Positions 62,879 through 64,000 of a stretch of 64,000 bases of DNA are shown here, piece after piece. Source of the DNA: Candidatus Nanoarchaeia archaeon (GTDB lineage Archaea; Nanobdellota; Nanobdellia; Woesearchaeales; JANQNC01); the NCBI GenBank assembly GCA_028279745.1, contig JANQNC010000001.1, positions 273,876 to 337,875 of the forward strand, read 5' to 3'. Each line of letters begins with the position of its first letter. Positions within the stretch are counted from its first letter, which is position 1. The position numbers and the translations under genes are program-made. The notes under the pieces were generated by a model. That model worked only from the letters and a program-made list of their open reading frames with translations, did no database searches and had not been told where the DNA came from.

Positions 62879-63124
62879 CTAATAGTTCGTTATCTTCTGA
62901 GCCATAGCGGAAGGTTTTCCAAGTTTTCCAAATTCGCTACCAACAGATTTGCATTCTTTGAACTCAGATCTATCTTTAAACTCTTCTTTCTTTCCTAAGT
63001 TCCAGTTTTGGACTGGCCTATGGTACCCTACCACTCTACTAAAGACTTCGCATCTTTTTCCGCAGCCTTCTTTACTGTCTGCGCTTTTTGTCTGTTCTAC
63101 TTTCTCTTTTTTTTCTTCAGCCAT
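62879..63124 (-). CDS. Stand-alone NrdD C-terminal module: half zinc-ribbon plus glycyl-radical motif
   Basis: GCGKRCEVFSRVVGYHRPVQNWNLGKKEEFKDR matches the NrdD glycyl-radical region (RVxGY...WNxGKxxE); it has its own AAAGAGGTGAAAAATG start context. Confidence 0.65.
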   Translation of the reverse strand: MAEEKKEKVEQTKSADSKEGCGKRCEVFSRVVGYHRPVQNWNLGKKEEFKDRSEFKECKSVGSEFGKLGKPSAMAQKITNY

Positions 63125-63176
63125 TTTTTCACCTCTTTAGGTCCAGAAACACTTTGTTGTGCTTCTTACCTCTAAC

Positions 63177-64000
63177 CTAAGCTTGAGTAACTCCTCCAAC
63201 TTCTTCTTTCTTAGCAACATCTTCTCTTTTCAACAGAGGCTGCCCATCTATAGGACAACAATGATGTTCTCCTACAACATATCCATGATCTGGACATACA
63301 CTAAATGTCGGAGTTATCGTAAAGTAAGGAAGCCTGAAATTTTCGGCAATCCGCTTTACCAGTTTTTTACAAGTCTGTTCATCACTAATCTTCTCACCCA
63401 AGAAACCGTGTAATACAGTTCCGCCAGTGTATTTTGTCTGAAGGCTGTCCTGAAGCTCTAAAGCTTCGAATATATCTTCAGTGAATCCAACTGGAAGTTG
63501 GGATGAGTTAGTGTAGTAGGGTTCTTTGTCTCCTTGCTGGATTATGTCATGGTACTTCTTCTTATCACTTCTTGCGAGCCTGTAAGACGTTCCTTCAGCA
63601 GGGGTCGCTTCTAAGTTATACATGTGTCCAGTCTCTTCCTGGAATTTTGTTAATTTGTCTCTCATGAAGTCAAGGATATCTTCAGCAAAAGCTTTCCCTT
63701 CCTTAGATGTTATGTTATATTCAGGACCTAAAAAGTTAAGCAGTGCTTCATTCATGCCCACTAAACCAATTGTACAGAAATGGTTGTCCAAAGTTCCCAA
63801 ATATCTTTTTGAGAAAGGCATCAGTCCTTTTTCCATGTTATGTTCAACAAGTTTCCTCTTGATCTCTAATGACTCTCTTGCCATATCCATCAATTTTTCT
63901 ATCCTTTTGAACAATTCTTCTTTAGATTGTGATAAGTAACCAATTCTTGGAAGGTTTATAGTTACAACTCCAACTGAACCAGTCATCTCTGCTGAACCAA
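63177..64000 (-). CDS. nrdD: Anaerobic ribonucleoside-triphosphate reductase NrdD catalytic body (N-terminus beyond the window), ending before the glycyl-radical domain
   Basis: ...GSVGVVTINLPRIGY...TITPTFSVCPDHGYVVGEHHCCPIDGQ... typical of the NrdD C-terminal half; the in-frame stop at 63177-63179 precedes the expected glycyl-radical motif. Confidence 0.75.
   Translation of the reverse strand, partial: GSAEMTGSVGVVTINLPRIGYLSQSKEELFKRIEKLMDMARESLEIKRKLVEHNMEKGLMPFSKRYLGTLDNHFCTIGLVGMNEALLNFLGPEYNITSKEGKAFAEDILDFMRDKLTKFQEETGHMYNLEATPAEGTSYRLARSDKKKYHDIIQQGDKEPYYTNSSQLPVGFTEDIFEALELQDSLQTKYTGGTVLHGFLGEKISDEQTCKKLVKRIAENFRLPYFTITPTFSVCPDHGYVVGEHHCCPIDGQPLLKREDVAKKEEVGGVTQA

Follow-up and report, generated by a model that had tools for sequence, protein, structure and literature searches.

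A probable two-chain class III ribonucleotide reductase in a nanoarchaeon, with the glycyl-radical domain encoded as a separate small subunit

We analyzed a 64-kb stretch of the genome of a Candidatus Nanoarchaeia archaeon (64,000 nucleotides of contig JANQNC010000001.1, hereafter the window, which is the scope of the locus description and the source of all positions given without a locus name), at one end of which nrdD, the gene for the class III ribonucleotide reductase (RNR), is divided into two open reading frames (ORFs). The nrdD operon lies on the minus strand; one ORF encodes the body of the enzyme, and the glycyl-radical domain is encoded by a separate 81-aa ORF (the small ORF, its product being the small chain). 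We document the position of the break, initiation signals proper to the small ORF, conservation of the arrangement, purifying selection, and an operon shared with a glutaredoxin (Grx)-like protein and the activating enzyme NrdG. On this sequence evidence we consider it highly probable that the locus encodes a functional class III RNR whose catalytic polypeptide underwent gene fission into a body and a radical-bearing small chain.

The reading frame of the body enters from the window end (64000) and closes at TAG 63179-63177, where the original prediction had placed an in-frame stop. The stop does not fall right after CPIDGQ, as had been claimed, since the body runs for 20 further residues (PLLKREDVAKKEEVGGVTQA), giving the C-terminus ...TPTFSVCPDHGYVVGEHHCCPIDGQPLLKREDVAKKEEVGGVTQA. 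The spacer is closed in all three frames, again as predicted, and the frame of the small ORF differs from that of the body. The strong start context that had been noted was confirmed in its Shine-Dalgarno (SD) motif, GAGGTG at 63135-63130 (-), although one more A than originally written separates it from the start codon (GAGGTG, AAAAA, then ATG at 63124). The complete small chain, MAEEKKEKVEQTKSADSKEGCGKRCEVFSRVVGYHRPVQNWNLGKKEEFKDRSEFKECKSVGSEFGKLGKPSAMAQKITNY, consists in order of low-complexity residues 1-20, C21-G-K-R-C25, E26-V-F-S-R-V-V-G33-Y, WNLGKKEEFKDR and a conserved tail ending ...GKLGKPSAMAQKITNY. The codon of the predicted radical residue, Gly33, is at 63028-63026, and this glycyl-radical motif is the only one in the window.

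To locate the break in the protein we used a Pfam scan and alignments to other NrdD proteins. The body matched positions 275-525 of the 562-position profile PF13597 (NRDD; E 2.9e-82) and the small ORF matched positions 526-562 (E 7.7e-10; 38.5 bits against a gathering cut-off of 26.2), and the profile is divided cleanly at 525/526 between the two chains. Together with its own SD and ATG, this match bears out the earlier proposal that the 81-aa ORF is a separately initiated glycyl-radical module. Against the TIGR02487 model, for which the cut-off is 326, the small ORF scored 39.5 bits. The body aligned to T. maritima NrdD residues 365-610, ending ...SVCEDGHAFYGER--CPVCGK, and NrdD of P. copri and of T4 was matched as well. 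When the small ORF was combined with 30 homologues in a profile, this aligned weakly to T. maritima NrdD 613-645 (VDEYMRIVG621Y), and the small ORF as a single sequence gave no NrdD match when searched against PDB sequences. The RVxGY motif (SRVVG33Y) is encoded on the separate ORF, and the body ends before it.

The Zn ligands of T. maritima NrdD are CxxxHx6CxxC, and the Zn ribbon lies between the last barrel strand and the Gly621 loop (PMC4493059). In the window body, CPDH...CCPIDG provides Cys, His and Cys as the first three ligands of the C-x2-H-x10-C-x2-C arrangement of its clade, with Asp replacing the usual fourth Cys, and the small chain resumes with G-C21-G-K-R-C25-E-V-F-S-R-V-V-G33-Y. 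The break is inside the CPxCG knuckle, between the third and fourth Zn ligands and 12 residues ahead of the radical Gly; the Pfam and T. maritima alignments agree in this with the predicted genuine split inside the Zn site. Relative to the canonical CPxCGxxCEV linker we counted approximately 42 extra low-complexity residues (22 in the body tail and 20 in the small-ORF N-terminus), close to the 45 or so first estimated. Continuous relatives read TPTFSxCPxHGYIxGEHxxCPxCGxx[C/T]EVYSRVVGY, and 104 of the 111 distinct continuous sequences have a length of 36 or 38 residues over the stretch TPTFSxC to GY. Candidates for the fourth Zn ligand are a Cys of the small-chain CGKRC, acting in trans, or the body Asp, acting in cis. 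The finger loop, with its catalytic cysteine(s), is outside the window; relatives L001, L002 and L086 have SMCCR there.

The same layout, with a body lacking the radical domain, an SD and a small ORF, was found in L001 (Logan), L002 (NCBI GCA_054040335.1), L084 and L085 (JGI and ENA), and L086 and L087 (Logan). The split loci of these relatives have NrdR upstream and Grx-like and/or NrdG genes downstream, the Grx-like gene being at the same position in L084, L085 and L087 and the NrdG gene also lying 3' of the small ORF in L002 and L086. A search of related genomes had been suggested, and it returned the same split, not a continuous gene, with the SD conserved. In 15 split loci the distance from the body stop to the small-ORF start ranged from -26 to +169 nt with all three frame offsets, and an SD-like motif (GGAGG, GAGGTG or AAGGAG) preceded the small ORF in every one. 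Such motifs precede only 12 of the 50 genes in the window, where chance would give 13.5%, which puts the small-ORF SD among the best there. Comparison of the window with its closest relatives gave nonsynonymous divergence (pN) of 0.075-0.25 in the small ORF and 0.035-0.08 in the body tail, with synonymous sites (pS) saturated at 0.5-1.0 overall and at 0.68-1.0 in the comparison with pN 0.075-0.25, values that point to strong purifying selection on both sides of the break.

These results bear on two explanations that would not involve a two-chain enzyme. A stop codon and a frame change within a normally continuous gene are the classic signature of a sequencing or assembly artefact or of a decaying nrdD pseudogene, but the identical architecture occurs in independent JGI, ENA, Logan and NCBI assemblies, purifying selection flanks the break, the radical-site residues are invariant, and stand-alone homologues starting exactly at the CG motif number in the hundreds (see below). 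We give this explanation next to no credence. The pseudogene alternative of the original prediction was rejected on the low pN against saturated pS and on the many orthologues with a conserved ribosome-binding site (RBS); it had been envisaged that the small ORF might have neither a conserved RBS nor an ortholog, and instead orthologues proved numerous and the SD was present in 15/15 split loci. Fusion of the two ORFs into one canonical NrdD chain at the level of RNA or of translation is also very improbable, if marginally less so, whether it came about by a programmed frameshift, a T4 gene-60-like bypass, an archaeal bulge-helix-bulge or group I intron, or protein trans-splicing. A GCT precedes the TAG and another follows the ATG, 58 nt apart, which superficially resembles take-off and landing codons, and there is a small hairpin in the spacer. 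The GCT/GCT pair is, however, missing from L001, L002, L084, L086 and L087, spacer length and frame vary freely among loci whose small ORFs all come with an SD and a start codon, no Rfam family matched the junction at the gathering threshold or at E <= 1, and its fold was unremarkable (z = -1.9). A T4 gene 60-type bypass was rejected because GCT...GCT is found in the window only and neither gap length nor frame is fixed among relatives. An intron or intein interruption was rejected on the lack of any Rfam match, the mere 52 nt intervening and the low-complexity tails of approximately 20 aa, and a split intein on size, as such tails are far too short for intein halves.

To determine how widespread the arrangement is, we took the 120 best homologues of the window body fragment, a search that returned mostly contig-end fragments, and classified approximately 116. 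Of these, 73 end soon after the Zn half-site without a radical domain and 43 continue into it. A small-chain profile searched against 1.84 billion representative proteins gave 5099 matches at E <= 0.001, of which 2724 reached E <= 1e-10; the top 150 of the 5099 are all 48-200 aa long. In many of these top matches the CG motif itself is the start, lying at residue 1 or 2, a position at which contig-end fragments would not begin. A further search of 5.8 billion proteins gave 76 homologue clusters of the small ORF, all 45-81 aa and each with a PF13597 match, several of them annotated as Candidatus Woesearchaeota. Residues E26, S29, R30, G33, Y34, N42, G44, K45, E48 and F49 were invariant in an alignment of 31 small-chain homologues. 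A Cys lies within six residues before EVxSR (at -5 and/or -1) in 210 of 211 stand-alone small chains, and position -1 is Cys in 60 of 111 (approximately 54%) continuous genes.

The small ORF had no match to PF01228, the Gly_radical family of pyruvate formate-lyase (PFL) type, and a Pfam scan at E <= 0.01 gave NRDD alone. No dedicated family for the small protein was found in Pfam, NCBIfam (June 2026 release) or PHROGs; PHROGs gave weak matches only, to the NrdD C-terminus and to phrog_4132. The latter, a phage family of unassigned function with a 179-position profile, matched the radical-loop region weakly at positions 118-156 (best E 1.6e-5) and may be another phage family containing the radical module. 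An AlphaFold2 model of the small chain alone placed strands at 25-28 and 35-38 around G33, and a Foldseek search with this low-confidence model returned noise only. Cys-rich C-termini (KLCCGKE, GCSCGCDK, SVCDCE, CPCK, NKCACD, SSCGC) are frequent among small chains and continuous NrdDs (L012, L029, L052, L063, L066, L068, L072, L076); class I and II RNRs have C-terminal redox-shuttle cysteine pairs, which these tails recall. The window small chain has a single tail Cys, C59.

With one genome per GTDB species, split operons were seen in Bilamarchaeaceae, Aquificales, Victivallaceae, Lentisphaeria, Thermoguttaceae, Elusimicrobium, Endomicrobiellum and Patescibacteria, and continuous nrdD in most other genomes, several Woesearchaeota included. 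In a rough neighbor-joining tree of the last 255 body residues, drawn without support values, split genes fell in at least six separate clades. The junctions are of more than one kind. In type 1, that of the window (34 of the 73 split bodies), CPxCG itself is interrupted and the fourth Cys is missing from the body; 27 of the 34 have Asp or Glu within six residues after CP. In type 2 (39 of 73) the body retains a complete CxxC...CPKCK, followed by a helix-like, heptad-like tail such as RIAELEKEREEVLAAG (L052, L063, L068; P0244, P0247, P0260 and others), and type 2 small chains have a matching amphipathic start, for example MTAQERKNIENKITELKAAKETAKGTDCEV or MSKEEIKSKIKSLEEEKK... (P0067, P0070, P0175 and P0192 among them). 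These paired sequences suggest that in type 2 an acquired coiled coil clamps the two chains together. The Aquificales have a junction type with the tail CPYPHSEEDLKRYG..., and the same insertion is present in the continuous counterparts L058 and P0264. A few small chains (P0167, P0184, P0227) carry the complete Zn ribbon.

Continuous genes L004, L007, L058 and L064 have insertions of 9-30 aa at exactly this linker. We infer that the linker tolerates insertions and has been broken repeatedly in NrdD evolution. In view of the insertions in continuous genes, the earlier suggestion that the extra residues are the remnant of an insertion is partly supported as history, although no intein or endonuclease remnant was found. 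Four continuous nrdD frames are unusually long (L047, L073, L074 and L083, with 868 to >1380 aa open upstream of the radical motif), which suggests inteins or fused upstream domains. That the split is widespread, recurrent and phage-borne is beyond what the original prediction knew.

Small ORFs also occur away from any body. Orphans with no NrdD body within 4 kb were found at prophage ends in an Elusimicrobia and an Acutalibacteraceae metagenome-assembled genome (MAG) (L072:2207-5355 and L003:159-2386), both with a long helical N-terminus as in type 2. The order in L072 is endolysin-like, holin-like, spanin-like (with an embedded lipoprotein), small ORF and integrase, and that in L003 is similar. 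We then classified 76 of the best 80 IMG/VR viral-contig matches to the small-ORF profile (L088-L167): 57 are orphan stand-alone radical ORFs and 19 are continuous nrdD. The viral orphans adjoin genes for terminase, portal, Sak4, SSB, RusA, helicase and ThyX, and by analogy they could be the phage counterpart, for class III RNR, of T4 Y06I. A collection of cultured phages gave seven matches, of which that in an Oceanotoga phage is a continuous nrdD. On the Lentisphaeria chromosome CP091727.1 a split body is followed by three tandem small-ORF copies (L060:3978-4595; 206-nt period, 98% and 76% identity); the L060 body has frame breaks, possibly long-read errors. The orphans and the three tandem copies point to a module that works in trans and whose dosage varies, and they are the best support for reading it as an exchangeable radical subunit.

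The radical domain was also found in fusions. In P0114, P0119 and P0157 it is fused to a Grx-like CxxC domain. Across these and P0165, P0156, P0162, P0182, P0216, P0223, L027, L107, L116 and L167, the partners are a glutaredoxin-like CxxC domain, dCMP deaminase and, repeatedly, a lipobox or transmembrane segment with approximately 100 residues of no assigned function. The lipobox/transmembrane fusions were found in Lentisphaeria/Victivallales and in viral contigs.

Coordinates of the split nrdD locus in the window, and of example orphan radical ORFs on viral contigs
Feature	Position	Strand	Basis
nrdD body, 3' part (large chain)	63177..64000	-	open-reading-frame list; PF13597 match; T. maritima NrdD alignment
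Zn-ribbon half-site in body, CPDHGYVVGEHHCCPID	63246..63296	-	alignment to T. maritima CEDGH...CPVCGK
Spacer between body and small ORF, 52 nt	63125..63176	-	sequence
Small chain, putative glycyl-radical subunit, 81 aa	62879..63124	-	PF13597 match; stand-alone homologues; pN << pS
Glutaredoxin/thioredoxin-like protein, 81 aa, CVKC	62630..62875	-	Pfam Thioredoxin_2 + Glutaredoxin
NrdG-like radical-SAM activating enzyme, 231 aa	61875..62570	-	Pfam Radical_SAM + Fer4_12
Example viral orphans	L091:4043-4200; L155:~4000-4160; L111:~4000-4130		IMG/VR contigs

The Grx-like gene starts 3 nt past the stop of the small ORF, and its product also matches the NCBIfam YruB/MJ0307 families below their cut-off. 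Between the body stop and the small-ORF SD a hairpin (AGAAGCAC...GUGUUUCU) occupies 63143-63172 (-); it is not kept in relatives. Beside the nrd operon are genes for a membrane protein with a DsbA-like domain (60126-61046 (-)) and for a 237-aa protein with a weak, sub-threshold match of chorismate-mutase type (61098-61811 (-)). Elsewhere the window encodes Elp3, RtcB, a methylthiotransferase of MiaB-like-B type and a sulfhydrogenase-like hydrogenase, a gene content that, with the annotation of the nearest small-ORF homologues, points to a Woesearchaeota-like DPANN archaeon; no tRNA or Rfam RNA genes were found across it. On the contig of the closest relative (L084:124-1343) the NRDD body ORF is just 186 aa long and directly follows a Pyr_redox_2 (thioredoxin-reductase-like) gene, which could reflect a chimeric assembly, a further rearrangement or a linked reductase.

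In the two-chain enzyme that we propose, the large chain would provide the barrel and the first three Zn-ribbon ligands (in relatives the ATP-cone too), and the small chain, made from its own SD and ATG, would provide the Cys pair CGKRC, the radical loop EVFSRVVG33Y and the C-terminal tail. The small chain would dock non-covalently, its hairpin with the Gly loop entering the barrel as the covalent domain does in T4, T. maritima and P. copri NrdD, and NrdG would generate the radical on Gly33. In type 1 splits Cys21 or Cys25 of the small chain may complete the Cys-His-Cys site of the body to give a metal-bridged heterodimer. The adjacent Grx-like protein would be the electron donor; that it is the reductant of this RNR is probable, because natural fusions of the radical domain to Grx-like domains exist. 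In solved NrdDs the C-terminal region, with its Zn site, buried Gly loop and surface tail, swings out for activation and back to deliver the radical (PMC11226230, PMC4493059), and in P. copri NrdD the glycyl-radical domain behaves as a mobile rigid body (PMC11226230). A non-covalent radical domain has been demonstrated for PFL by GrcA/YfiD (PMC13450708). By analogy, a non-covalent version of the NrdD radical domain is mechanistically plausible.

Several points weigh against this proposal. The two-chain enzyme is predicted here from gene sequences; the window cuts off the N-terminal two thirds of the body, and the genome may contain another, continuous nrdD. The small-chain profile matches the solved T. 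maritima structure weakly (E 0.04), and the small chain alone is modeled at low confidence only (pLDDT 62.6). Two further points concern the metal: the Zn site could be completed in cis by the Asp of CPIDG or by a Glu of the body tail, and the small chain keeps its Cys even where a type 2 body has all four, so this Cys need not be a Zn ligand. We regard metal-bridged assembly at the type 1 junction as an evenly balanced question. The bridge is favored because nearly all small chains keep a Cys at -5 and/or -1 (210/211), against roughly half of continuous genes with Cys at -1 (60/111), and the first Cys-Gly of the small chain aligns with the canonical CPxCG knuckle. The competing model is a two-chain enzyme without a metal bridge, in which the body Asp completes the Zn site and binding is via the buried Gly loop and the C-terminal tail. 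It accounts for the Asp or Glu present in 27 of the 34 split bodies that lack a fourth Cys, and the type 2 bodies with a full CxxC...CxxC suggest that bridging is dispensable for a working split; we hold this model to be a serious, if lesser, possibility. The original prediction that the two chains would have to assemble around the metal is therefore plausible but not compelled, as the CPIDG Asp could serve as the fourth ligand in cis.

The remaining alternative is that the small protein is a trans-acting spare part that repairs an oxygen-cleaved, full-length NrdD encoded elsewhere, the adjacent body being non-functional or otherwise employed. The orphans at prophage ends (L003, L072) and at 57 of 76 viral-contig loci, and the three tandem copies in L060, indicate that the module is evidently useful in trans. 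The window and 14 other loci, however, place the small ORF immediately after a body that lacks exactly that part, and the body is conserved as strongly as the small ORF. As truncated bodies are the majority of close homologues, an obligate pair fits better than a dead gene with a repair factor, and we consider the repair explanation unlikely. Beyond the obligate pair of body and small chain, it is conceivable, though we put it forward only tentatively from the sequence distribution, that stand-alone NrdD-type radical proteins are a widespread, unrecognized class of exchangeable radical cartridges for class III RNR. These would be obligate in split operons, activated by NrdG off the enzyme and swapped after oxygen cleavage, sparing the 670-aa body, and phage orphans would sustain host anaerobic dNTP synthesis during infection. 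A benefit of fission, more speculatively, would be that the oxygen-labile radical part becomes a cheap, replaceable subunit.

Glycyl-radical enzymes are thought to carry the radical glycine on the catalytic polypeptide. Canonical single-chain NrdD (T4, T. maritima, P. copri; PF13597, TIGR02487) shares with the window system the barrel, Zn ribbon, RVxGY loop, C-terminal tail and an NrdG gene in the operon; it is one polypeptide, whereas in the window NrdD the large chain stops between Zn ligands three and four, and the radical glycine belongs to a second chain of 81 aa that has its own start. In DPANN archaea such as Nanoarchaeum equitans, split protein genes are known in which a single enzyme is divided into two polypeptides at the linker between domains. 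The window likewise belongs to a small-genome archaeon with an enzyme in two polypeptides, but its halves are adjacent and co-oriented, and the fission recurs in several bacterial phyla. GrcA/YfiD and T4 Y06I resemble the small chain as small stand-alone radical domains with a disordered N-terminus, with action in trans on a large barrel (for the small chain, proposed) and with phage-encoded copies. There is no family-level homology between them (PF01228 versus NRDD), and the likeness is one of analogy. GrcA moreover serves as backup to a complete PFL with a radical domain of its own, whereas the adjacent NrdD body has none, so the small chain would be obligate. A June 2026 review treats formate lyases as the only glycyl-radical enzymes with known spare parts and leaves other members open (PMC13450708).

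Split RNRs are known from class II NrdJa/NrdJb (Pseudomonas, Thermus phage) and from phages in which endonuclease genes, introns or inteins interrupt nrdA and nrdD (PMC9669993, PMC3653736). In these, as here, an RNR catalytic subunit comes from two consecutive ORFs whose products must assemble. They differ from the window in class, break point or both, the phage nrdD splits being due to introns, mobile elements or unexplained fragmentation, and none separates the radical domain as a conserved small subunit. Our search of the full-text literature, with most subscription journals outside its scope, found no description of a split NrdD or of a separate radical subunit, in line with the original prediction. 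An RNR of two chains in which a mini-subunit bears the radical, and the spread of this design in phages, thus appear not to have been described previously.

If active, the pair would call for a correction of annotation, as pipelines now give the label 'partial' to the body and treat the small ORF as 'hypothetical' or as a fragment. The finding points to an anaerobic RNR built from a body and a radical mini-subunit of 60-80 aa, an arrangement that recurs with varied junctions in archaea and several bacterial phyla and has orphan counterparts in phages. Should the small chains prove to be exchangeable radical cartridges, spare parts would be known for the first time beyond pyruvate formate-lyase. 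An active pair would offer a small, separately expressible activase substrate with a possible metal-bridged subunit interface, and a natural system for radical-domain docking, NrdG access to a buried glycine and subunit exchange after oxygen damage.

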